Of a DNA stretch of 64,000 bases, positions 2,256 through 23,370 are shown piece by piece. The stretch's first letter is position 1; each line of letters starts with the position of its first letter. The position numbers and the translations under genes are program-made. Source of the stretch: a virus; the IMG/VR virus record IMGVR_UViG_3300003316_000080, positions 3,483 to 67,482 of that record, one strand, 5' to 3'. The notes beneath the pieces were generated by a model. It saw nothing but the letters and a program-made list of their open reading frames with translations, made no database searches and was not told where the DNA came from.

Positions 2256-3832
2256 TTCTGGTGTCGCGCCATGCCATCACACGCTACCTTGACCGAGAGC
2301 TAGAAACACACAAGTGGGTCAAGAAGCTGACAGAGCGTCAGCTGTGGCAGGAACTGAAGCAGCTGCGCACTGTCCCTCAGTTCAAGACTGACCCATGGCT
2401 GCACCAACTGGCGTGCTTCTATCTGGGCCTGCACTACCTGCGCTTCCTGTTCATCCTAGACATGGGGCTGGGCAAGTCGAAGTTGGTGATTGACCTGATC
2501 GAGCACCGTTTTCGGCAGAAGCGTCTCAGCATGCGCCGCGACGGACGCACAGCGCTGGTGATCGTTCCAGGCGTGCTGAATACGGTTGGATGGGGTGAGG
2601 ACATCGAGCGCCATTCACTCATGGAACCGCACCTGATCACGTGCGAGAACATTGAGCAGAAGCGCTATGAACTGCTGCACCCACAAGGTGAAGTGACCGT
2701 GATCGACATGCCGTCGCTTGCCCTAGCACTGTCCACCAAGAAGAAAGGCAAGGGTCGTGGCAAGTTGCTGGCAGACAAGCAGGCGATTGCACGCGCTCAG
2801 CAGTTGTACGGTTTCATTGGCGTTGATGAGACGCACAAGTACAAGAACCACGAAACCCTGTGGTACGACGTGCTCGATCCTCTGTGTGCAGCAGCCGACG
2901 AGGTGAAGGGGCTGACTGGAACCATCTTCAGTGCAAGTCCGATCGAGATGTGGCCGCAGTTTAATCTCGTCGACCGAGGTGAGACGTTCGAGAACCGTGG
3001 ACTCTTCCAGGCGGCCTTCTTCGACTCGAAGTCAGATCATGTGAAGGGGACTGTGTACACCTTCAGGCCTGAGAGGACACGTACTCTCAACAGGATGATG
3101 CAGCACCGCTCGATTCAGTATGACGAATCGGAGGTGCACGAACTTCCAGAGCGCGTCTATCGTCCGATCAGGATGGAACTGGCAGGCGAAGCGGACGAGC
3201 ATTACCGTCGCGCTCTGGAAGGTGTCATTAATGTTGGCGCCGCCGAGAGTAGCAAGCTAGATGGAGGCTGGGTGCGCATGCGCCAGATCTGCGGTGGCTA
3301 CCTGAAGTGGTCTGATGCACACGGAGCGCACAAGCTCATCTTTGCACAGAACCCGAAGTTGGACATGCTGATGCGCCTGCTGGAGGACATCGGAAGTAAG
3401 AAGGCTGTTGTGTGCCATGACTACACCGACAGCGCGGAACTGATCGAAGCGCGGTTTAAGAAGGAGGGCATCAAGTACGCCACGTGCTCAGGGCGGACGA
3501 AGGACAAACCGGCAGAACGCGCTCGCTTTCTCGATGATCCAACCTGCCGCGTCTTCTTGATGCAGAACGCGGCTGGGGGAACAGGCACTGACGGCCTGCA
3601 GAAGGTGTCCAACTACATGATCTTCTTTGAGTCGCCAGCCTCCCCGGGTCTGCGCAAGCAAGTAGAAAAGCGCATACATCGTCCAGGTCAGACACAGAGG
3701 GCGTTCTACTACGATTTGACATATGGGCGCACCGTCGATAGCGGCATCCGTGAAGCACACAAGCAGGGTTTTGACCTATACGAAGCCGTGATGTCTGGAC
3801 GCTCTTCGACCTTGAGAGGGCTCATGAGTTGA
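2252..3832 (+). CDS. SF2 helicase, SNF2/DEAH-like
   Basis: Motif I LDMGLGKS, motif II GVDETHKYKN, C-terminal helicase domain with GGTGTDG and HRPGQTQ. Confidence 0.7.
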   Translation: MILVSRHAITRYLDRELETHKWVKKLTERQLWQELKQLRTVPQFKTDPWLHQLACFYLGLHYLRFLFILDMGLGKSKLVIDLIEHRFRQKRLSMRRDGRTALVIVPGVLNTVGWGEDIERHSLMEPHLITCENIEQKRYELLHPQGEVTVIDMPSLALALSTKKKGKGRGKLLADKQAIARAQQLYGFIGVDETHKYKNHETLWYDVLDPLCAAADEVKGLTGTIFSASPIEMWPQFNLVDRGETFENRGLFQAAFFDSKSDHVKGTVYTFRPERTRTLNRMMQHRSIQYDESEVHELPERVYRPIRMELAGEADEHYRRALEGVINVGAAESSKLDGGWVRMRQICGGYLKWSDAHGAHKLIFAQNPKLDMLMRLLEDIGSKKAVVCHDYTDSAELIEARFKKEGIKYATCSGRTKDKPAERARFLDDPTCRVFLMQNAAGGTGTDGLQKVSNYMIFFESPASPGLRKQVEKRIHRPGQTQRAFYYDLTYGRTVDSGIREAHKQGFDLYEAVMSGRSSTLRGLMS

Positions 3833-12375: not shown

Positions 12376-13601
12376 GAAACCGTGACGATGATGACCGTGG
12401 TTCGCGCCGTGGTCGCGATGATGACGATGACCGCCGCAGCAGCCGTGGCCGTGACAGCGGTTCGAGCCGTGGCGGTTTCGTCTACAAGCAGCGCAGCGCC
12501 GAAGAGAACCGCAAGCGCGCCGAGAACACCGGACGAGACTTCGAGTCGATTTACAAGGACGGTGTCAACCTATACAAGGTCAAGGACGGCGACAACAGCG
12601 TCCGTGTGCTGCCGCCGACGTTCAAGGGCGCCCAGCACTACGGACTCGACATCCAGGTCCACTTCGGCATCGGGCCCGACCGCGCGACGTACCTGTGCCT
12701 CAACAAGATGCTGGACAAGCCGTGCCCGATCTGCGAGGCACGCCAAGAAGCGCAGCGTGACGGGGACGACGAACTGGCGAAGGAACTGGCACCCAAGCAG
12801 CGTGTTCTCGTCGCCCTGATCGATCGTGATGATGAGAAGGCCGGTGTGCAGATCTGGGGCATGCCCTGGACCGTCGACCGTGACCTGGCCCAGGTTGCCG
12901 TCGATCGCAAGACCAAGGAAGTGCTGCCGATCGACCATCCTGAAGAAGGGTATGACGTCTTCTTCACGAAGACGGGCAAAGAGCGCAACACGAAGTACGG
13001 CGGCATCTCTGTGGACCGGCAGCCGTCAGAACTCGGCCGGCGCGGCGACGAGTGGCTGGACTGGATTCAGGAACACCCGCTGGACACGCTGCTGAACTAC
13101 GCCAGTTACGATGACATCGCCAAGGCGTTCAACGGCGGCGGCTCTGGTGGCGGTTCGCGTCGTCGCGATCGCAGCGATGACGACGATGACCGCTCTTCGC
13201 GTCGTGGCCGTGATCGTGACGATGACCGCAAGAAGGACGATGTCCTGTCGTGGGATGACGTTCACGGCATGAAGCCGCGCGAACTCGAAGACCTCGCAGC
13301 TGAGCACGGCATTAAGTCGTCCAAGTACGACGATGACGAAGAACTGGCTGACGCGATCTGTGAAAAGCTGGACATCAGCAAGCCCAAGCCGCGACGCTCG
13401 CCTGGACGTGATGGCGATGACGACGATGACCGCTCTTCGCGTCGTGGCCGTGATCGTGATGACGATTCCAATGAGAAGACGGCGCGTCGTCGGTCCAATG
13501 ATGACGACGAGGACGACACCCCGCGCACCCGTCGCCGTGAGGCCAATGACGACGATGACGCGGAAGAAGGTCTGCGCAAGATGCGCCGCCGCGCGGAGTG
13601 A
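12372..13601 (+). CDS. gp32-like single-stranded DNA-binding protein with Arg/Asp-rich repeat termini
   Basis: H-x12-C-x8-C-x2-C (HFGIGPDRATYLCLNKMLDKPCPIC) matches the T4 gp32 zinc-site pattern; located between clamp loader and RecA-like gene. Confidence 0.55.
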   Translation: MRNRDDDDRGSRRGRDDDDDRRSSRGRDSGSSRGGFVYKQRSAEENRKRAENTGRDFESIYKDGVNLYKVKDGDNSVRVLPPTFKGAQHYGLDIQVHFGIGPDRATYLCLNKMLDKPCPICEARQEAQRDGDDELAKELAPKQRVLVALIDRDDEKAGVQIWGMPWTVDRDLAQVAVDRKTKEVLPIDHPEEGYDVFFTKTGKERNTKYGGISVDRQPSELGRRGDEWLDWIQEHPLDTLLNYASYDDIAKAFNGGGSGGGSRRRDRSDDDDDRSSRRGRDRDDDRKKDDVLSWDDVHGMKPRELEDLAAEHGIKSSKYDDDEELADAICEKLDISKPKPRRSPGRDGDDDDDRSSRRGRDRDDDSNEKTARRRSNDDDEDDTPRTRRREANDDDDAEEGLRKMRRRAE

Positions 13602-14707
13602 TCATGGCAGCACGCAAAACGACCAAGCCTGCGGTGAAGCAGGCAGCGCCCAAGTCGGTCGCGGCTCGCAAGCGTGCTGTTCTCCGTGATGTGGATGAGG
13701 GCTCTGACGAGTTCGTCGAGCCCTCCTACTTCTCTGCGGGGGACAGCAAAACCAACATCGAGTTCATCTCAACTGGATGCACGATCCTGGACGAGGCGCT
13801 GGGTGGGGGTGTCGCTGAAGGACGTGTGCTGAATGTCGTCGGTGACTCGTCCACGGGCAAGACACTGCTGGCAATGGAGATCGCGGCCAACTTCGCGCTG
13901 AAGCATGCGGAAGGACTCGTCCGTTACGCTGAAGCAGAACTGGCCTTCGACGATGATTATGCGGAAGCGATGGGCATGGACCTGTCGCGTGTCGAGCGCA
14001 ACAGCGGCTCGCGCCTCGTGGGCACCGTCGAGCAGTGGCACGATGATCTCGTCGACTTCATGAAGAGGCTGAAGGGTCGTCCTGGCCTGTACATCCTCGA
14101 CAGCCTCGACGCGATCTCCGATGACGATGAGGTGAAGGCCGAGTTCGGTGAAGCCAGCTACGGCGGCAAGAAGCCCAAGCTGATCTCCCAGCTGTTCAGG
14201 CGCACGATCAATGATCTGCATGCGGCCAACGTGACGCTGATGATCGTCTCGCAGACGCGAGACAAGATCGGTGTGACCTTCGGGCCGACGAAGACGCGAT
14301 CAGGCGGCAAGGCGCTGGAGTTCTATTCGTCACAGATCGTTTGGCTGGCGCATGTCGGCAAGATGGACAAGACGATCGATGGCATCAAGCGCGTGATCGG
14401 TCATGAGGTCCGCGCCAAGGTCAGCAAGAACAAGTGCGGACTGGCGCACCGGACTGTCGACTATCCCGTGCTGTATGGCTACGGAATCGACGACATGATG
14501 GCGGGCGTGACGTGGCTGATCGAGAACAAGTGCGATGAAGCTCTGGAAGAACTCGAACTGACCAAGGCCGGTGCGAAGACTTCAGTGGCGGCCATGCGCA
14601 ACAAGCCGGAGCGCGCTCGCGAGTTTCGTCCGAAGATGCGCAAGATCGTGCGTAGGGAATGGGCGCGCATCGAAAACCTGTTCTTGCCTAAGGCCCGTAA
14701 ATACTGA
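13598..14707 (+). CDS. RecA/UvsX-like recombinase
   Basis: FISTGCTILDEALGGGVAEGRVLNVVGDSSTGKTLLA matches the RecA N-terminal/Walker A region. Confidence 0.8.
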   Translation: MIMAARKTTKPAVKQAAPKSVAARKRAVLRDVDEGSDEFVEPSYFSAGDSKTNIEFISTGCTILDEALGGGVAEGRVLNVVGDSSTGKTLLAMEIAANFALKHAEGLVRYAEAELAFDDDYAEAMGMDLSRVERNSGSRLVGTVEQWHDDLVDFMKRLKGRPGLYILDSLDAISDDDEVKAEFGEASYGGKKPKLISQLFRRTINDLHAANVTLMIVSQTRDKIGVTFGPTKTRSGGKALEFYSSQIVWLAHVGKMDKTIDGIKRVIGHEVRAKVSKNKCGLAHRTVDYPVLYGYGIDDMMAGVTWLIENKCDEALEELELTKAGAKTSVAAMRNKPERAREFRPKMRKIVRREWARIENLFLPKARKY

Positions 14708-14817
14708 CGATGTGAAACGCCATGCGGTCTTGACCTACAAGACAACGTGGCGTTCACCTACTGTCTGTTACCGCAGGTCGTGGCAAAAGGTCTATACCGT
14801 CGGACAAAGGAGTCTCT

Positions 14818-14988
14818 ATGCAAACCCGTCACGCACACACAAGCCTGTCTCTGAAGGAACTGATTACCAAGCACACCCAGCCTTGCTGGAAGTTTTGGCA
14901 CCCAGGCTCCGGCCTCGTCGGTGGCCTGATCACCTCAGTCCTTCTGCTGGTGATCGTGCCTGCACTGTGGCAAACCTTCTTCAAGTGA
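14818..14988 (+). CDS. small membrane protein (56 aa)
   Basis: AAGGAG RBS then ATG; C-terminal hydrophobic helix LVGGLITSVLLLVIVPAL. Confidence 0.35.
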   Translation: MQTRHAHTSLSLKELITKHTQPCWKFWHPGSGLVGGLITSVLLLVIVPALWQTFFK

Positions 14989-14989
14989 C

Positions 14990-15589
14990 ATGACCAGTAA
15001 AAAGTTACTGTGTGGAATCGATCCGGGCGCCAAGGGCGCCTTGGTCGTTTTGGATGAAGACGGCACGGTGATCGCGTGGTTGCTGATGCCCATGATCAAG
15101 CAGGGAACTCAGGAGCGTGTGAACGCTGCGGCTGTGGCGGCATTCCTGAAGCCCTATGCCGCCAACATCACAGCGAATCTCGAACTGGTCGGAGCAATGC
15201 CGGGTCAGGGCGTCGCCAGCATGTTCAGCTTTGGTCACTCGGCCGGCGTAGTTACTGGGGTACTGGGCGCACTGGAGATCCCTGTCACGCTGATCACGCC
15301 TCAGAAGTGGACGAAGCACTTCAACCTGGGTTCGAAGACAAAGAGCCCAGACCAAGCACGCGGCCTCGCAGCACGCTTCTGGCCCGCGTGGCGTGAACTT
15401 GACTTCAAGGGCAAAGGCGGTGCACTGGCAGACGCGGCGTTGATCGCGCGCTACAGCCTCGGACTCAATCGGGAAGCCATCGCGTATAACTCGGCACCGC
15501 GCAAGACGCGTCATGTGCTGAAAGAACTCGATGAAACTCCCCGCACTGCTGGTCGCCGACCTGCACCTGACGGCAAGCCCAGCCGATGA
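14990..15589 (+). CDS. RuvC-like Holliday junction resolvase
   Basis: N-terminal GIDPG, C-terminal ADAALIARY; RuvC-like size and layout. Confidence 0.7.
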   Translation: MTSKKLLCGIDPGAKGALVVLDEDGTVIAWLLMPMIKQGTQERVNAAAVAAFLKPYAANITANLELVGAMPGQGVASMFSFGHSAGVVTGVLGALEIPVTLITPQKWTKHFNLGSKTKSPDQARGLAARFWPAWRELDFKGKGGALADAALIARYSLGLNREAIAYNSAPRKTRHVLKELDETPRTAGRRPAPDGKPSR

Positions 15590-16526
15590 GTACCGGTGGG
15601 ATCTTTTCCCCTGGCTGCTTCACACGCTGCAGCAAGAGCGTGTAGCAACACTGAACATCCTTGGCGACATCACTGACGCCAAGGACTACCACCCGGCCAA
15701 GTTGGCAAACAGGCTGGTGGGTGAAGTCCAAAAGTTGTCCCAGGTGGTGCCCGATGTGCGCATCCTGATGGGCAATCACGATTACCTGAAGCGCCAGGAG
15801 GCGTACTTTTCTTTCCTGTCCTATCTGCCCGGCGTGCGCTACATCGATACGGCCTGGGAGGACACACTAGACGACGGCCCGTCTGTCTACTACCAGCCCC
15901 ACACGAAAGACCCTGTGAAGGATCTGGCTGGCGACTTCACTCATTACGACTACCTGTTTATGCATCAGACAGTGAAAGGGTCTGTTGCATCGAACGGTCA
16001 GGAGATGCCGGGCTACGGAGACAGTCGCATCAAGGCGCTGAAGATCTACAGTGGTGACATCCACGTGCCCCAGATCATCAATGGCGTCGAGTACGTCGGC
16101 TCGCCCTACCACGTTCACTTCGGCGATGACTTCAAGCCACGTGCAGTGCTGCTCGACAAGAAAGGTCGCGCCCATGATCTGCACTTTGACTCACCACGGC
16201 GCGTGATGCTTAAGGTGGGATCGCTGAAGCAGTTGCGTGCTCTCCAACTGGACAAGGGTGATCACGTCAAGGTCACGTTCAACCTGGAACCGTCTGATGC
16301 GGCGGATTGGTCGCAGATTCGCCGTGCTGCTGCACGCGTGCTGGGCGACAGAGGTGTGATCACGCATGAACTCAAGATGTCCATGAACAAATCGGATCGC
16401 CGTATATCGAGCCAGCAGGCCACGCAGATGGCGCTGCTGCGGCCGGAGGACATCATGACGCGCTGGGTTGAGCGCGAAGAACTGGGCGGCGAGGCCCTTG
16501 AGATCGGATTGGAGCTACTGAAATGA
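15531..16526 (+). CDS. SbcD/Mre11-like nuclease (calcineurin-like phosphoesterase)
   Basis: ADLHL, GDITD, GNHD metallophosphoesterase motifs. Confidence 0.8.
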   Translation: MKLPALLVADLHLTASPADEYRWDLFPWLLHTLQQERVATLNILGDITDAKDYHPAKLANRLVGEVQKLSQVVPDVRILMGNHDYLKRQEAYFSFLSYLPGVRYIDTAWEDTLDDGPSVYYQPHTKDPVKDLAGDFTHYDYLFMHQTVKGSVASNGQEMPGYGDSRIKALKIYSGDIHVPQIINGVEYVGSPYHVHFGDDFKPRAVLLDKKGRAHDLHFDSPRRVMLKVGSLKQLRALQLDKGDHVKVTFNLEPSDAADWSQIRRAAARVLGDRGVITHELKMSMNKSDRRISSQQATQMALLRPEDIMTRWVEREELGGEALEIGLELLK

Positions 16527-16840
16527 GGCAACCGCCGAAGCGCTTCCAGAAGATGGGAGGGGGTCACACGCGCAAGTACGTGGTGCAAGGCGTGTGCGCC
16601 AACGGTGAAACGCACGCTGTAGCTGTCTTCACCTATGCCATCGACGCAGAGGCGTTCTCACTCGTCTGCTATGCCGCCCAGATTGAGGCGCCAGTGCCCA
16701 GTGACAAGCTGCCGGCGAACAGTGATGCATACCGGCGTGCTGTGCAGACGTGGCGAGGAAAGCACCCTCTCGGCCGCACCGCCAACCCTCGACATGACCA
16801 CTTCGAGGTGCATCCAGCGCCTCTGATGATTGGGTACTGA
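16523..16840 (+). CDS. hypothetical protein
   Basis: ATGA overlap with SbcD stop. Confidence 0.4.
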   Translation: MRQPPKRFQKMGGGHTRKYVVQGVCANGETHAVAVFTYAIDAEAFSLVCYAAQIEAPVPSDKLPANSDAYRRAVQTWRGKHPLGRTANPRHDHFEVHPAPLMIGY

Positions 16841-16841
16841 T

Positions 16842-17033
16842 ATGCAAGACTCTCGGCGCCGAATGCCCTCATACATCAAGCCTCACATCTTCCTTCACCA
16901 CAACGGCTTTTGGTACGTGACGAAGTGCCGCACGCCATTTCGGAGGCGCACGGATTCACAAGTGAAGATGTGGGACGCTGCTTATCGTGCCGTGATGGCT
17001 TTGAACGCCGGCAGAAAGATCCCACGAGAATGA
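16842..17033 (+). CDS. hypothetical small protein
   Basis: ATG 2 nt after upstream stop; stop overlaps SbcC start (ATGA). Confidence 0.3.
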   Translation: MQDSRRRMPSYIKPHIFLHHNGFWYVTKCRTPFRRRTDSQVKMWDAAYRAVMALNAGRKIPRE

Positions 17034-18997
17034 TCCCGCTGTCCATCACCATCAAGGATTGGGGCCCGTTCGTGGGCTCCCACACCTTCAAGTTCTCTGA
17101 GGCACCGGGCCTCTATTTCCTGTGGGGAGAGAACCGCGCAGAACCGCGCCTAGGCTCCAACGGCGCCGGCAAATCTCGCCTGTGGCAGGCGCTCACGTGG
17201 GTCTTTCATGGCAAGGATCTCGACGGCAAGAAGGCTGGTGACGTCGCGAACTGGAAGGTGGGTAAAGGCGCCTCCGTCGAGTTCTGCTACAGCATGGGTG
17301 GTGAGCAGTGGGTGATCGTCCGCCGCTGGTCGCCGAACGCATGGGAACTGCTGAGCGAGCACGGAGAGGTGTTTGACCTAGCAAAGGACAACACCAATTT
17401 GGCGCTGGTTCACGTCAAGTTGTCCTTTACGGCTTGGAAGCAGACCGTCATGCTCGGACAGGACCAAGACCTGTTCCTGGATCTCGGCGCTGAGCAGAAG
17501 GCAGCACTCTTCGCCGAGTTGATGAACCTCGATCATTGGCTGGATCTGGCCGCCAAGGCGTCGAAGAAGTCGACGGAAGAGGATGGACGGGCCCGCACGC
17601 TAGAAGCGCACATGGGTCGCTTGGAAGGGCAGTTGCAGCAACTGGATAACGACACGGGCGCGGAAGCCTCGCGTATCTGGGAGGAAGACCGCCAGAAGCG
17701 CCTGGGCGTCTACACACACGAGTTCGAGGCTGGAGCAACACGCCAAGCAAAGATGAAGGACGGTCTGAAGGCTGTGGAGGCCCAGGCAAATGAAATGCGC
17801 GAGCGGGCACGCAAGGCGCGTGAGCAGGAAGACAGCATTAGGCTCATGTACACGGAGTTGGACAAGACAGAGCCTGATGCGCGAGCAGAGGTGACTTTGC
17901 TTCAGTCACAGCTGGATGCGCTGATCAAGCACGAAGCAATGCTGGATGAGATGGACGACTGCCCAACGTGTGGTCAGACGATCGACACCAAGCACAAGCG
18001 CAAGGAACAAGAGGCCGTGTCCAAACAGGTCTTCGCCCTTGATCGTGATTTGGCAGCGGCCAAGCGCCACCACTCTGACGTCAAGGCCAAGGCGCGCGAA
18101 TGGGAAGACGCCTTTAACAAGGCAGTAGAGGAAACAGAGAAGCTAACTCAGCGCGTGCGTGAGCTTGAGCAGGACATCAAGGACCGCACACGCTCGATCA
18201 CACTGATGGATCGGGACCTGGACGATATCGAGATGCGCGTAGAGCGTCTGGAAGCACAGACGAACCCTCACGCTGCCGCAGACACCAAGCGTGCTGAAGA
18301 GCGTGAGCGTTTGACAGAAGCTGTACGAGCGACAAGGCGCCACCTCGACCAAGCCTCGAACCGCGCTGCGTACTTCAGCTACTGGGCACGCTGGTGCAAA
18401 GACATCCGCCTGATGTTGATCTCTGAGGCGCTGGCCCAGCTGGAGATCGAGGTCAATAACGAGTTGCACGCGGCCGGCCTCGATGAGGGGTGGGCCCTGC
18501 AGTTTGCTGTGGATCGCGAGACGAACGCCGGCACGGTGAAGCGCGGGTTCAACGTGCTTGTGCTATCGCCACACAACGATCGTGCAGTGCCCTGGGAGAT
18601 GTGGTCAGGTGGAGAGGCTCAGCGACTGCGTGTTGCAACTCAATGCGGCCTTGCCAACCTCGCCCGGGCACAGACAGGGGCATCCATCAACCTAGAGGTG
18701 TGGGATGAACCCACCAACGGGCTGTCGGAACAGGGCATCAACGATTTACTGACGATGCTCGCGCGTCGGGCAGAAGACGAGCAACGTGCGATCTGGGTTA
18801 TCGACCATCGATCGCACAGCTTCGGCGGTTTCGCCGGATCGTCTGGCGTGATCAAGACAGACGCCAGTTCTTCGTTTGACCAGACCGGTCTGTATAACGG
18901 AGGGGGCAATGTCGAAGTACATGAACAGCCCGTATCTGAGGCAAGCAATCGTGCGGCACATGATGTCCGCCGAATCGGACGCAAGGAACTCACATGA
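17030..18997 (+). CDS. SbcC/Rad50-like ATPase
   Basis: Walker A GSNGAGKS, long coiled coil with CPTCGQ zinc hook, signature SGGE, Walker B WVIDH. Confidence 0.8.
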   Translation: MIPLSITIKDWGPFVGSHTFKFSEAPGLYFLWGENRAEPRLGSNGAGKSRLWQALTWVFHGKDLDGKKAGDVANWKVGKGASVEFCYSMGGEQWVIVRRWSPNAWELLSEHGEVFDLAKDNTNLALVHVKLSFTAWKQTVMLGQDQDLFLDLGAEQKAALFAELMNLDHWLDLAAKASKKSTEEDGRARTLEAHMGRLEGQLQQLDNDTGAEASRIWEEDRQKRLGVYTHEFEAGATRQAKMKDGLKAVEAQANEMRERARKAREQEDSIRLMYTELDKTEPDARAEVTLLQSQLDALIKHEAMLDEMDDCPTCGQTIDTKHKRKEQEAVSKQVFALDRDLAAAKRHHSDVKAKAREWEDAFNKAVEETEKLTQRVRELEQDIKDRTRSITLMDRDLDDIEMRVERLEAQTNPHAAADTKRAEERERLTEAVRATRRHLDQASNRAAYFSYWARWCKDIRLMLISEALAQLEIEVNNELHAAGLDEGWALQFAVDRETNAGTVKRGFNVLVLSPHNDRAVPWEMWSGGEAQRLRVATQCGLANLARAQTGASINLEVWDEPTNGLSEQGINDLLTMLARRAEDEQRAIWVIDHRSHSFGGFAGSSGVIKTDASSSFDQTGLYNGGGNVEVHEQPVSEASNRAAHDVRRIGRKELT

Positions 18998-19709: not shown

Positions 19710-20651
19710 ATGACTGTCTATTACAACGAGTTCAATCTGCACGCAGCCAAGTGGATTAGCAATCTGATCAAGGCAGGTTTGATAGCACCCGGGATTGTCG
19801 ACACAAGGAGCATTGAGGATGTCAGACCGCGAGACTTGCGAGGGTTCAAGCAGTGTCATTTCTTCGCCGGAGTGGGCGTGTGGAGCTATGCACTCCGACA
19901 AGCGGGATGGGCAGATGACAGAGAGGTCTGGACAGGTAGTTGCCCCTGCCAACCTTTCAGCTCGGCAGGCGCAAAAGCTGGGTTTGATGACGAGCGGCAC
20001 TTGTGGCCCCACTTCCACTGGCTCATCGGCGAGTGCCGACCTACAGTCATTTATGGAGAGCAGGTTGCAAGCAAGAACGCGGACCCTTGGATCGACCTTG
20101 TATGTTCTGACCTGGAAGCCTTGGGTTACGCCTTCGGGGCGGTCCCGTTTGCGTCAGCGGGCGTCGGCGCCCCGCACGCGCGAGAGCGTACGTACTGGAT
20201 GGCCCACACCAACAACAAGGGACTGGAAGGACGGCAAGGGTTGCGACAACGTACCGGCGAACGCGCTGCTGGGGCGTGTGGTGTGGCTGGCCGGTTGGGC
20301 AACGCCGACTACGTTGCACAACAAGCGGACGGAGGCTTTCGCGGCGGGCCGCACTCCGACGCCTTCGGAAGTGCTGCCGACCTGCCAGCCGGCCCGACTA
20401 ACGGCTACTGGAAAACTGCTGACTGGCTCTTCTGCCGGGATGAGCAGTGGAGGCCCGTTGAACCCGGCACATTCCCGTTGGCTGATGGCGCTGTTGCCAG
20501 AATGGGACGCGTGCGCGCCTATGGAAACGCTATCAATGCTGAGCAAGCCCGAATCTTTATTGAAGTGGGCATGGAAGCCTTGCACGCCCAGACACAAGCT
20601 GAGAACACCTCGGCATCAACTGCGCGGAAGCAACTGAGAGGCCCTACGTGA
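19710..20651 (+). CDS. DNA (cytosine-5)-methyltransferase
   Basis: Motif I FFAGVGVW, motif IV GSCPCQPFSSAG, ENV-like YGEQV, motif VIII LEALGYAFGAVPFASAGVGAPHARERTYWMA, motif X-like RAYGNAINAEQA. Confidence 0.7.
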   Translation: MTVYYNEFNLHAAKWISNLIKAGLIAPGIVDTRSIEDVRPRDLRGFKQCHFFAGVGVWSYALRQAGWADDREVWTGSCPCQPFSSAGAKAGFDDERHLWPHFHWLIGECRPTVIYGEQVASKNADPWIDLVCSDLEALGYAFGAVPFASAGVGAPHARERTYWMAHTNNKGLEGRQGLRQRTGERAAGACGVAGRLGNADYVAQQADGGFRGGPHSDAFGSAADLPAGPTNGYWKTADWLFCRDEQWRPVEPGTFPLADGAVARMGRVRAYGNAINAEQARIFIEVGMEALHAQTQAENTSASTARKQLRGPT

Positions 20652-20881
20652 AGATCACTGACGTGTCCAACAAGAAGACAGTGGTGTGTGGCTTCACATG
20701 CTGGCATTGCCGCCGCGTGGTGTTATCTGGTGGCGCCGCTGAAGTCGTCGAGATCTCGATCAAGTTGCGGCCGGGCGCTGACAGACGTGAGCGTGCAAAC
20801 CGCCTGAGAATGGCCCGTGCTGAACTGCGCCATGCCCTTGCTATATTCCGCGCCAACAAAGAACTTGAGGACCTCGCATGA
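20648..20881 (+). CDS. small zinc-ribbon protein
   Basis: GTGA overlap upstream, ATGA overlap downstream; CGFTCWHC cysteine cluster. Confidence 0.4.
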   Translation: MKITDVSNKKTVVCGFTCWHCRRVVLSGGAAEVVEISIKLRPGADRRERANRLRMARAELRHALAIFRANKELEDLA

Positions 20882-23370
20882 GTGTGCGTTGTGTTGACTG
20901 CCTTGTGGGCCTGCGCCAGCTTCCAGATGCATCCGTTGATGCCATCGTCACGGATCCGCCCTACGGCCTGAGCGAGCAGAAGCCAGCGGAACTCGCTGCT
21001 TGCATCGCTGCATGGCTGGCCGGCGAGGTCTACCAGCCGAAGGGCAAGGGCTTCATGGGCAAGTCCTGGGACGCCTGGGTGCCTGGGCCCGAAGTCTGGC
21101 GCGAGTGCTTCCGCGTTCTCAAGCCGGGCGGACACATCCTGGCCTTCGCCGGCACGCGCACGCAGCACTTGATGGCGCTGTCGATGGCCCTGGCTGGATT
21201 CGAAATCAGGGACATGATCGCCTGGGTGTATGGCTCCGGGTTTCCGAAGTCGCTGGACGTGTCGAAGGCGGTCGACAAGGCAGGCGGAGCCTCGCCCGTC
21301 GAGCAGGCTGAACTGCTGCGCCGCAAGCGCGTGGCGGCCGGCCTGACGCGAGAGCAGGTCGCGGAACACTGCGGGTGCACTCCATCGAGCGTTCGAGACT
21401 GGGAAGAAGGCCGAGCGCGCGCCGTCGGTGCCGCCGTTGAGTTCATCGTCCCGAGCGACGAGTACCGCACCAAGCTGGCCGACTTGCTCGGTTACAGCGT
21501 GGACGAGCGCAAGCTGATTGGAACCTCGGCTGACCGGCGCGGCGATGGCACCGTCTACGGGGTGGGCCACAGCGGAGAGTTGCGCGCTGGCGGCAACACC
21601 GACGCTGCCCGCCAGTGGGAAGGCTGGGGCACCGCCCTGAAGCCGGCCCTTGAAACGGTTACTTTCGCTTCAAAGCCGTATACCGAAGAGCAGGAACGGA
21701 GTATAATTCAATCGAACCTAATTCGATTGGAGGCCCGTTTATGGTTGCTGTCGTCTGCGAGTGCTGCGGAAAAGAGTTCAACGTCAAGCCAAAGCGAGTA
21801 CGGCGCGGCGTGCGCTATTGCTCAATGGAGTGCCGACGAAATCACCAGTACACGGGCCGCTTTGTGCGGTCAGATGGATACGTCGCTGTTCGAGTGGGCA
21901 GCGACTACCAGCTTGAGCATCGTGTCGTCATGGAGGCGCACATTGGTCGAAAGCTGGAGCGATGGGAGCACGTCCACCACCGAAACGAAGTCAAACACGA
22001 CAACCGACTCGAGAACCTTGAAATTCTCACTGTCGCAGATCACGCCGAGCACCATCATCAAGGCCTGCAGCCTTCCCGGTGGGTTCAATGCGAATGCCTC
22101 CACTGCGGAAAGCCACTTCAACGCCTCGCTGTTGTTGTTGCAAAGCATCCGCACACTTTCTGCGACCGAGCCTGCTATATCGCAGGCGCAGCACGAACAC
22201 CTGGGCGCGGGCGTAAAGCCGAACCTTGATCCATGCATCATGGCGCGCAAGCCGCTGGTCGGAACGGTCGCGGCCAACGTTCTGGAGCACGGGACGGGGG
22301 CGCTGAATATCGACGGGTGCCGCGTGGGCGATGAGGAGCGGGTGAACGGCGCCGGATCTGTGACCTCGCTTCAGCGTCAATCACGGGTCGCGGCGGGATA
22401 CCGCGATGATGCTGGCGTTGGCCCAGGCTCTGACGCGAAGACCGTTGTTGGCCGTTGGCCCGCCAACCTGATCCACGACGGCAGCGACGAGGTGCTGGCG
22501 GCGTTCCCGAACGCGCCTGGTCAACTCGCGACGGCGAGCACCAGCGACACGCAGCGCTCCGGACAGAACACCTACGGTGCGATGACCCGTGGCAGCACGG
22601 GACAAGAACCGCGCGACGAGCTCGACAAGAGCGCCGCCCGATTTTTCAAGGAGTGTGCATGGGACGAACCTCGATCTGTTGCGAGCACTGCCGCGCAGCC
22701 TTTGTGCCTGCAAAACCAAGTCGCCGATTCTGTTCAGAGCGCTGCAGCAACTTGGGCCAGCCTCGCGGGAATACTCTCAAACGATTCGAAGGAACGTTCT
22801 ATGAACGTAACTCCGATCGAGTCAAGAGCGATCGCAGAAACCGTTATCACTGCGACGACGAGTATCGCAAGCGGGTTCTCGCTCGAGTCGCAGCACGAAA
22901 GGCTCACCCCGTGCCGCAGCCTTGTGAAGACTGTGGTGCGCCGAACGCCGATCGGCATCACGACGATTACGACAAGCCTCTCTCGATCCGATGGAAGTGC
23001 CGGAGCTGCCACGTTCACCATCACGCCGACGAGCTTGGATCGTGGGGATCTGGGCTCGCGGTTTGAGTACTGCGCCAAGGCTAGCAAGAAGGATCGCGGC
23101 GAGGGTAACAACCACCCTACTGTCAAGCCGACCGCGCTGATGCGGTATCTCGTCCGCCTTGTTACCCCTCCGGGTGGCACTGTACTTGATCCTTACACGG
23201 GCTCTGGTTCAACAGGAGTGGCCGCGCAAGCGGAAGGCTTCAAGTTCATCGGATTTGAGAATGACCCTGCTTCTTGTGCGATTGCAAACAGGCGAATGGG
23301 ACTCACGGGCCTGCTTGCTGTGAACAAAGAGCGCCGCCAGCTGCGTCTTCGCAAGCAGTTGATTGAGTGA
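20878..23370 (+). CDS. N6-adenine/N4-cytosine DNA methyltransferase (DPPY class), open frame interrupted by two HNH-gene inserts
   Basis: N-term VTDPPYGL; embedded XRE-like HTH; GWGTALKPA../..ARKPLVGTVAANVLEHGTGALNIDGCR; C-term HPTVKP and VLDPYTGSGSTG; 830-aa frame with no stop. Confidence 0.7.
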   Translation: MSVRCVDCLVGLRQLPDASVDAIVTDPPYGLSEQKPAELAACIAAWLAGEVYQPKGKGFMGKSWDAWVPGPEVWRECFRVLKPGGHILAFAGTRTQHLMALSMALAGFEIRDMIAWVYGSGFPKSLDVSKAVDKAGGASPVEQAELLRRKRVAAGLTREQVAEHCGCTPSSVRDWEEGRARAVGAAVEFIVPSDEYRTKLADLLGYSVDERKLIGTSADRRGDGTVYGVGHSGELRAGGNTDAARQWEGWGTALKPALETVTFASKPYTEEQERSIIQSNLIRLEARLWLLSSASAAEKSSTSSQSEYGAACAIAQWSADEITSTRAALCGQMDTSLFEWAATTSLSIVSSWRRTLVESWSDGSTSTTETKSNTTTDSRTLKFSLSQITPSTIIKACSLPGGFNANASTAESHFNASLLLLQSIRTLSATEPAISQAQHEHLGAGVKPNLDPCIMARKPLVGTVAANVLEHGTGALNIDGCRVGDEERVNGAGSVTSLQRQSRVAAGYRDDAGVGPGSDAKTVVGRWPANLIHDGSDEVLAAFPNAPGQLATASTSDTQRSGQNTYGAMTRGSTGQEPRDELDKSAARFFKECAWDEPRSVASTAAQPLCLQNQVADSVQSAAATWASLAGILSNDSKERSMNVTPIESRAIAETVITATTSIASGFSLESQHERLTPCRSLVKTVVRRTPIGITTITTSLSRSDGSAGAATFTITPTSLDRGDLGSRFEYCAKASKKDRGEGNNHPTVKPTALMRYLVRLVTPPGGTVLDPYTGSGSTGVAAQAEGFKFIGFENDPASCAIANRRMGLTGLLAVNKERRQLRLRKQLIE
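21741..22229 (+). CDS. HNH homing endonuclease nested in MTase gene
   Basis: Own GGAGG RBS; CxxC clusters; EHVHHRNEVKHDNRLENLEILTVADHAEHHH; +2 frame relative to MTase. Confidence 0.8.
   Translation: MVAVVCECCGKEFNVKPKRVRRGVRYCSMECRRNHQYTGRFVRSDGYVAVRVGSDYQLEHRVVMEAHIGRKLERWEHVHHRNEVKHDNRLENLEILTVADHAEHHHQGLQPSRWVQCECLHCGKPLQRLAVVVAKHPHTFCDRACYIAGAARTPGRGRKAEP
22659..23066 (+). CDS. HNH homing endonuclease nested in MTase gene
   Basis: AAGGAG RBS; CEDCGAPNADRHHDDYDKPLSIRWKCRSCHVHHH; +2 frame relative to MTase. Confidence 0.75.
   Translation: MGRTSICCEHCRAAFVPAKPSRRFCSERCSNLGQPRGNTLKRFEGTFYERNSDRVKSDRRNRYHCDDEYRKRVLARVAARKAHPVPQPCEDCGAPNADRHHDDYDKPLSIRWKCRSCHVHHHADELGSWGSGLAV

Follow-up and report, generated by a model that had tools for sequence, protein, structure and literature searches.

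We analyzed a 64,000-nucleotide (nt) stretch of viral DNA (IMG/VR record IMGVR_UViG_3300003316_000080, positions 3,483 to 67,482; hereafter the window, with coordinates counted from its first letter), in which a phage C5-cytosine methyltransferase gene at 19710..20651 contains a long second open reading frame (ORF) on the same strand. This second frame (frame +1) is almost certainly a real, selected coding sequence nested in frame 0, and its product is probably the second subunit of the methyltransferase. We name the frame 0 gene alpha (ATG 19710, 313 amino acids (aa), the putative large subunit) and the nested gene beta (19819..20637, ATG 19819, 272 aa, wholly inside alpha, with the conserved core at 19950-20520); all features of the locus are on the plus strand. 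The first-pass annotation of the locus, made from the sequence without database searches, had noticed the two frames and suggested a gene frameshifted by mutation, sequencing error or recoding, or a chance ORF.

Selection on the two reading frames

The open stretch of frame +1 begins at 19786 and ends with its stop at 20637 (listed ORF 19795..20637, 280 aa). The frame 0 protein carries motif I (FFAGVGVW, 19860-19883), motif IV (PCQ, 19944-19952), motif VI (GEQV, 20055-20066), motif VIII (GAPHARER, 20166-20189) and motif X (YGNAI, 20520-20534; YGNAINAEQA, YGNAINAEQARIFIE). Frame +1 reads WPTPTTRDWKDGKG from 20200 (GWPTPTTRDWKDG from 20197) and GWATPTT from 20293, and peptides specific to this frame would include DWKDGK and VVWLAGWATPTTLHNK. 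All the ORFs and motifs listed by the first-pass annotation were found where it had placed them.

The numbers of stop codons expected in 69 relatives were estimated by synonymous codon resampling, with the third frame as a control. Frame +1 is expected to contain 32 stops over frame 0 codons 39-80 and 112 over codons 81-163 (about 144), and none was observed. Reciprocally, about 197 frame 0 stops are expected across the alpha linker given the frame +1 protein, and none was observed either. The third frame contained 108, 232 and 216 stops versus 93, 200 and 145 expected in the three segments, which gives 340 observed versus 293 expected over frame 0 codons 39-163.

The nucleotide diversity by codon position and at four-fold degenerate sites, plotted on window coordinates, demonstrated that selection switches frame along the gene. 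The classic frame 0 pattern was detected at 19710-19950, with third positions at 0.5-0.7 and a frame 0 four-fold diversity of 0.64; beta residues 1-44 (19819-19950) fall in this part and are an unconserved leader, with frame 0-only evolution and no frame +1 selection. From 19950, right after PCQ, the frame 0 third positions are frozen at many codons and the four-fold diversity is 0.27 (19950-20166), with near-zero diversity at 20091-20117 (GSTLYxLTWK of beta) and 20154-20165 (RLRAS of beta). In this first dual-constraint zone (19950..20165) the alpha motifs IV-VII lie over the beta N-terminal core, comprising ANLSARQA, GLMTSGT, GSTLYxLTWKxWxTPSGR and RLRAS. Motif VIII (GAPHxRxR, 20166-20195) is selected in frame 0 only, with a frame 0 four-fold diversity of 0.55 (20166-20196).

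The zone at 20196..20400 is selected in frame +1 only: the first position of frame 0, which is the third position of frame +1, is the most variable (0.5-0.7) and frame 0 is free, with beta encoding WxTP modules and alpha a Gly/Arg-rich linker. All three codon positions are conserved in the second dual-constraint zone (20400..20520; frame 0 four-fold diversity 0.15, frame +1 four-fold diversity 0.26), where the motif IX-like stretch of beta (20458-20508) lies over NGYWKTADWLFCRDEQWRPVEPGTFPLADGAVARMGR of alpha. Further downstream (20520..20600) motif X and the C-terminal helix of alpha are again under frame 0-only selection (third positions 0.5-0.7, four-fold diversity 0.60), and the beta tail is unconstrained. 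Frame +1 four-fold-site diversity was 0.53 in the alpha linker zone and 0.26-0.28 in the two overlap zones. Double purifying selection thus covers about 340 nt, and because of it the megablast match with otherwise too diverged Rhodobacter and Pseudomonas phages (85-88% identity over about 100-125 nt) is confined to 20389-20542.

The gene is GC-rich, long alternative ORFs are common in such DNA, and the conservation of CAPTxTxS in the beta tail is indeed induced by YGNAI. It is nevertheless extremely improbable that the +1 ORF as a whole is a by-product of base composition with conservation imposed by frame 0 selection, as the chance ORF of the first-pass annotation would be. The 144 expected stops are absent, the frame +1 third position varies at 20196-20400 where frame 0 is unconstrained, the conserved parts of beta coincide with frozen frame 0 four-fold sites (0.15-0.27 vs 0.64), and the E. 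coli and Salmonella phage members, at only 54-57% GC, retain the frame +1 ORF.

Frame +1 also has its own homologues. With the C-terminal 145 aa as query, phrog_31772 was matched at E 9e-24, and tblastn retrieved 214 phage records, led by Burkholderia phage BcepC6B (62% identity, E 1e-35). The same part matches 800 database proteins, 136-254 aa long and mostly named 'hypothetical protein' and without a Pfam domain; the frame +1 profile search detected 14,840 protein clusters at 50% identity. The family consensus consists of LSARQAKALGLMTSGT..., GSTLYxLTWKxWxTPSGR, RLRAS, GWPTPTTRDWKDG.ECxNVPLNALLGRVxWLAGWPTP, further AGWPTP modules and a motif IX-like end, the number of WxTP modules varying from two to five among relatives. 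The frame +1 proteins in the databases have this strong consensus in common and look like genuine proteins. The homologues, the profile clusters and the missing stops put the +1 ORF, whose length the first-pass annotation had remarked as unusual, far outside what chance would give. Phrog_1008 aligns to beta residues 10-237 (E 8.5e-28); we rejected phrog_1008 and phrog_31772 as independent support for methyltransferase homology, because both are themselves collections of annotated frame +1 ORFs.

Conservation of the layout and the start of the nested frame

The layout was compared in two sets of loci. The viral set (80 IMG/VR loci with all three tblastn query pieces) was originally picked by frame +1 patterns, and for that reason the bacterial set (80 genome loci, one per species) was drawn with frame 0 patterns only (SCPCQPFS and FFAG[IV]GVW). 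In 79 of the 80 viral loci frame 0 encodes motifs I-VIII, frame +1 the WxTP and IX-like part and frame 0 again the motif X part, with an overlap of about 140 nt between the last two. All 80 bacterial loci have the same frame 0/+1/0 layout, frame 0 being uninterrupted and frame +1 open. A single frame 0 ORF spans motifs I to X in 77/79 viral and 80/80 bacterial loci, and in both sets frame +1 is open from frame 0 codon 38 or earlier almost to the frame 0 stop.

The two-frame layout was detected in E. coli, Salmonella, Bordetella, Erythrobacter, EBPR and cyanobacterial phages, with EBPR podovirus 2, Bordetella PHB09, Erythrobacter ZS04 and Cr-LKS3 as more distant members. For BcepC6B gp33 and RcGingersnap gp22 the annotated frame is of the frame 0 type, and the +1 frame is also open with the same motifs. 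The few exceptions look like mutants or errors: the viral locus L034 with a 1-nt shift, locus L017 with a nonsense codon in frame +1, and the degraded L015 and PACT201.

These data bear on the suggestion of the first-pass annotation that a 4-nt duplication, visible as a tandem CGTACGTAC repeat where motif VIII ends and WPTP begins, had shifted the frame. The repeat is real (20187..20195) and such a duplication would give a +1 shift, but it is incidental and not a frameshift scar: its codons vary freely among relatives (third-position diversity 0.69-0.72), and relatives lacking it have the identical two-frame layout. A private frameshift, duplication or sequencing error that broke a single-frame gene is hardly credible, since the layout is ancestral and present in 159/160 related loci from many hosts. 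No single-frame relative was detected among the loci read or the 10 longest of 150 listed beta-profile matches; none of these 10 has a PF00145 domain in frame with beta, and three are read-throughs into downstream genes. The 313-aa frame 0 protein aligns end to end with its family, which also argues against a broken gene, and homologues match the frame +1 segment too; the combination is the one predicted by a nested second gene.

The candidate start of beta is the ATG at 19819, with a Shine-Dalgarno (SD)-like AAGGAG (19805..19810) 8 nt ahead of it; further ATGs in the beta frame follow at 19888, 19915 and 19987. The first frame +1 ATG falls within frame 0 codons 26-40 in 64 of the 69 relatives (codon 36.3, 30.3, 40.3, 28.3 or 26.3) and is usually preceded by AGGAG, GGAG or GGGG; an SD-like tetramer is located at -15..-5 of this ATG in 44/69 relatives versus 12% at control positions. 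Codon usage in alpha agrees with this picture. The Asp37 codon favours GAT (51:14), which creates the frame +1 ATG, and three other conserved Asp codons favour GAC (48:10, 59:10 and 66:3). Similarly, the Arg33 codon is AGR in 26/69 relatives versus 0/69 at Arg63, and AGR at this position creates the SD. The frame 0 codons of the relatives are biased in the way that would keep the putative frame +1 start signal.

The recoding proposed by the first-pass annotation was considered as a programmed +1 frameshift near 20196, possibly followed by a shift back before motif X, that would rebuild a single-chain methyltransferase. The order of the parts across the frames (I-VIII, IX-like, X) is the canonical motif order, and in the exceptional locus L034 the N-terminal domain and the frame +1 part are in one frame. 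However, motif X is lost from the long ORF of L034, a locus with the look of a mutant or of a sequencing error. Already 80-125 codons upstream of the junction, from 19950, frame +1 is open and selected, and frame 0 stays open through the linker; the first is needless for a shift product and the second for a double shift. Neither junction has a conserved heptamer, slippery site or shift-prone codon, the RNA at the two junctions folds no better than shuffled sequences (z +0.36 and +1.37), and the separate SD and ATG of frame +1 are maintained. We therefore regard the frameshift as very unlikely.

Read-ons from frame +1 into the next gene were detected in several relatives. In the proteins P0307, P0253 and P0325 and the loci L041 and L060, frame +1 has no stop before the next gene and enters a Dam methyltransferase (PF05869), an HNH nuclease or a DUF2800/PD-(D/E)XK protein; these may be real fusions or gene-caller artefacts. 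In the E. coli ECCTRSRTH03 prophage locus (L087, 2378-3547) the Prokaryotic Genome Annotation Pipeline (PGAP) calls two partial pseudogenes, each named 'DNA cytosine methyltransferase, incomplete', next to an MT-A70 methyltransferase in a lambda-like bet/exo region. Related DNA is present in 67 of 5,426 complete E. coli genomes, where the N-domain and the dual-coded stretch often match separately.

A two-subunit methyltransferase as the probable function

The assignment of frame 0 to the C5-methyltransferases, already made by the first-pass annotation, was confirmed. The frame 0 protein matches Pfam PF00145 in its N-terminal part (53 bits, cut-off 22), phrog_363 over residues 1-298 (E 4e-84) and M.HhaI in the PDB hidden Markov model search (E 5e-14). 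Alpha aligned to the M.HhaI family by hhalign with 98% probability over motifs I-VIII. The frame 0 protein resembles at least 8,000 database proteins that bear the name 'DNA cytosine methyltransferase'.

In the AlphaFold2 model of alpha, residues 1-167 and 273-305 are confident, and the predicted local distance difference test (pLDDT) score of the helix 277-309 is above 90. The linker (170-227) has a pLDDT of 31-45 and is modelled as disordered, and residues 228-272 have 44-54. The best PDB matches of the alpha model by Foldseek are M.HaeIII, M.HhaI and DNMT2, with probability 1.0 for M.HaeIII and M.HhaI. Alpha shares the catalytic core with M.HaeIII and M.HhaI, motifs I and IV-VIII aligning, but these enzymes are single chains with the target recognition domain (TRD) and motif IX in frame. 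The Pfam and hhalign alignments of frame 0 end at motif VIII, and the TRD and motif IX are not located between VIII and X. The putative motif X was called by the invariant G272-N273 in YGNAI and the confidently modelled C-terminal helix. Since alpha has no constrained sequence between motif VIII and the last 80 residues, something else must supply the small domain.

The N-terminal half of alpha has a peculiarity of its own. Residues 1-82 (19710..19955) contain a motif II-like YYNEF..AAKW and a motif III-like VDTRSIEDV ahead of motif I, and the AlphaFold2 model has a strand-helix-strand ahead of the motif I strand. Only about 25 residues separate motif I (FFAGVG) from PCQ; M.HhaI residues 33-70, located between motifs I and IV, have no counterpart in alpha and are skipped in the profile alignments. 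Motif order and model together suggest a permuted order II-III-I-IV in the S-adenosylmethionine (AdoMet)-binding half.

Beta residues 70-120 were modelled as a helix and a beta-hairpin (pLDDT 83-91). The hhalign comparison of the beta profile with M.HhaI (sequence identical to 10mh_A) and with an M.HhaI-family alignment produced a single alignment, which places the motif IX-like stretch on M.HhaI 273-291 (KLHPRECARVMGYPDSYKV), the motif IX segment. The methyltransferase-like motifs that the first-pass annotation saw in frame +1 are upheld in position, the sole M.HhaI alignment being on motif IX, and not in strength.

A natural precedent for such an arrangement has been described. According to two papers, M.EcoHK31I (E. 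coli HK31; Lee, Kam & Shaw 1995) is a two-polypeptide C5-methyltransferase with beta encoded inside the alpha gene in another frame; its alpha contains motifs I-VIII as well as X, its beta motif IX, and both are needed and must associate, with the TRD placed in alpha (PMC2836561, PMC3404938). Internal Met codons of beta can be used as starts (PMC2836561, PMC3404938): when the beta start codon was removed silently, some activity persisted, owing to initiation at Met17 and Met26 (PMC2836561). By the published description, the gene in the window resembles M.EcoHK31I in the nested alternative-frame beta, in the alpha subunit of about 310 aa with motifs I-VIII and X, in the putative IX-like motif in beta and in several candidate beta ATGs. 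It differs in that M.EcoHK31I belongs to a restriction-modification system, and the window gene is in a phage replication/recombination module, in which no nuclease gene was seen. The subunits of M.EcoHK31I are said to have 309 aa (alpha) and 176 aa (beta); the window beta is longer (272 aa, core about 190 aa) and also overlaps the alpha motifs IV-VII.

Two further systems are useful for comparison. In phage lambda the Rz1 gene, embedded in the +1 frame of Rz, encodes a product that cooperates with Rz in lysis; Rz1 is about 60 codons, whereas the nested ORF in the window has 272 codons and about 340 nt under double selection. M.AquI (Agmenellum quadruplicatum) is a natural two-polypeptide C5-methyltransferase with a linear split, in which the chains must associate (PMC3404938). 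It is split inside the variable region and its small subunit contains the distal TRD with motifs IX and X, whereas in the window alpha retains motif X and the small ORF lies inside the large one, not after it. PMC3404938 contrasts this linear split with M.EcoHK31I.

By analogy with M.EcoHK31I, we propose the following model. Alpha would be the large subunit with the AdoMet-binding and catalytic motifs I, IV, VI and VIII, followed by the Gly/Arg-rich linker, a short conserved segment and motif X. Beta, translated from its own SD and ATG, would consist of the helix and beta-hairpin N-core, the WxTP modules and the motif IX-like end; it would bind alpha and be needed for activity, contributing motif IX and, probably, the greater part of the target-recognition surface. 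The assembled enzyme would methylate phage DNA, probably as an escape from host restriction. A further step, that beta is the whole specificity module made of variable WxTP modules and that the alpha variable region is a mere open spacer, is proposed only tentatively. If true, specificity would evolve by module gain and loss in one frame with the other frame only tolerating it, and the family would be among the largest and longest same-strand nested gene pairs of phages and bacteria.

Several observations weigh against the second-subunit assignment. Beta has no match in Pfam and NCBIfam, its profile matched nothing among the PDB sequences at E up to 10, and no structural match was found either. 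The alignment of beta with M.HhaI is weak (E 0.35, probability 0.17) and not significant alone. In the window, beta WLMALLPEW (20485..20499) has Ala for the Gly of M-G-x-P, and at least 90% of the relatives have WLMGLPPEW. The translation of beta from its own SD and ATG is predicted from the sequence, and the putative kinship to M.EcoHK31I was compared by description; no beta of 176 aa that has both Met17 and Met26 was detected among the loci searched. In M.EcoHK31I, moreover, the TRD belongs to alpha, whereas the window alpha is unconstrained between its motifs and the variable WxTP modules are in beta.

The missing domain-database and structural matches and the statistically weak link to motif IX would also be expected if frame +1 encoded a real protein outside the methyltransferase, for instance a regulator or another phage function that only shares the DNA. 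We consider this unlikely, since beta accompanies alpha in 160/160 loci (with the same layout in 159/160), alpha lacks constrained sequence between motif VIII and the last 80 residues, the best and only alignment of beta to M.HhaI is on motif IX, and M.EcoHK31I provides a precedent with the same division of labour.

With beta as the probable second subunit, thousands of phage and prophage genes annotated as 'DNA cytosine methyltransferase' probably encode two proteins. If the annotated gene were codon-optimised for synthesis or mutated 'silently', the nested gene would be lost and the enzyme would probably be inactive. Long same-strand overlaps are debated, and this family is a deep and diverse case, with clean statistics and a precedent validated by experiment; it may also show a target-recognition module detachable from the catalytic chain.

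Annotation and neighbouring genes

Beta is overlooked by the domain libraries, by PGAP and by most of the phage annotations checked. Frame 0 was called in E. coli phage ZCEC5, and PGAP calls frame 0 only; frame +1 was called in Salmonella phage W5_chr3 ('Mte8-like protein') and Cylindrospermopsis phage Cr-LKS3 ('methyltransferase'). In the literature searched we found no description of the phage/prophage family as dual-coding and nothing relevant on 'Mte8'. The nested layout itself is known from M.EcoHK31I; it is an obscure kind that is routinely missed, overlooked here in thousands of phage and prophage genomes. No close phage at the DNA level was detected in the reference collection, the best megablast coverage being 5%.

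Downstream of alpha and ahead of the second methyltransferase gene is a 77-aa ORF (20648..20881, plus strand) whose start overlaps the alpha stop; its product contains a CxxxCxxC cluster (VVCGFTCWHCRR) and matched nothing in Pfam. The adjacent gene (20878..23370, plus strand) encodes an 830-aa N6/N4 amino-methyltransferase with a split Pfam match, comprising the N-terminal part (DPPY) and residues 732-804, and with a helix-turn-helix domain at 144-211. The middle of this ORF is Ser/Thr-rich and resembles an out-of-frame translation, and two nested ORFs in other frames of the same strand (21741..22229 and 22455..23066, plus strand) sit exactly there, one encoding an HNH endonuclease (PF13392, E 3e-9) and the other a Cys/His-rich protein. 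A second methyltransferase ORF of the window therefore remains open over genes nested in other frames; insertion of homing endonucleases with read-through, introns, or a frame open by chance could account for this. Upstream of alpha, the region 13598..18997 (plus strand) is a recombination/repair module encoding a RecA-like protein (PF00154), a calcineurin-like phosphoesterase (SbcD-like) and a 695-aa AAA ATPase (SbcC-like).

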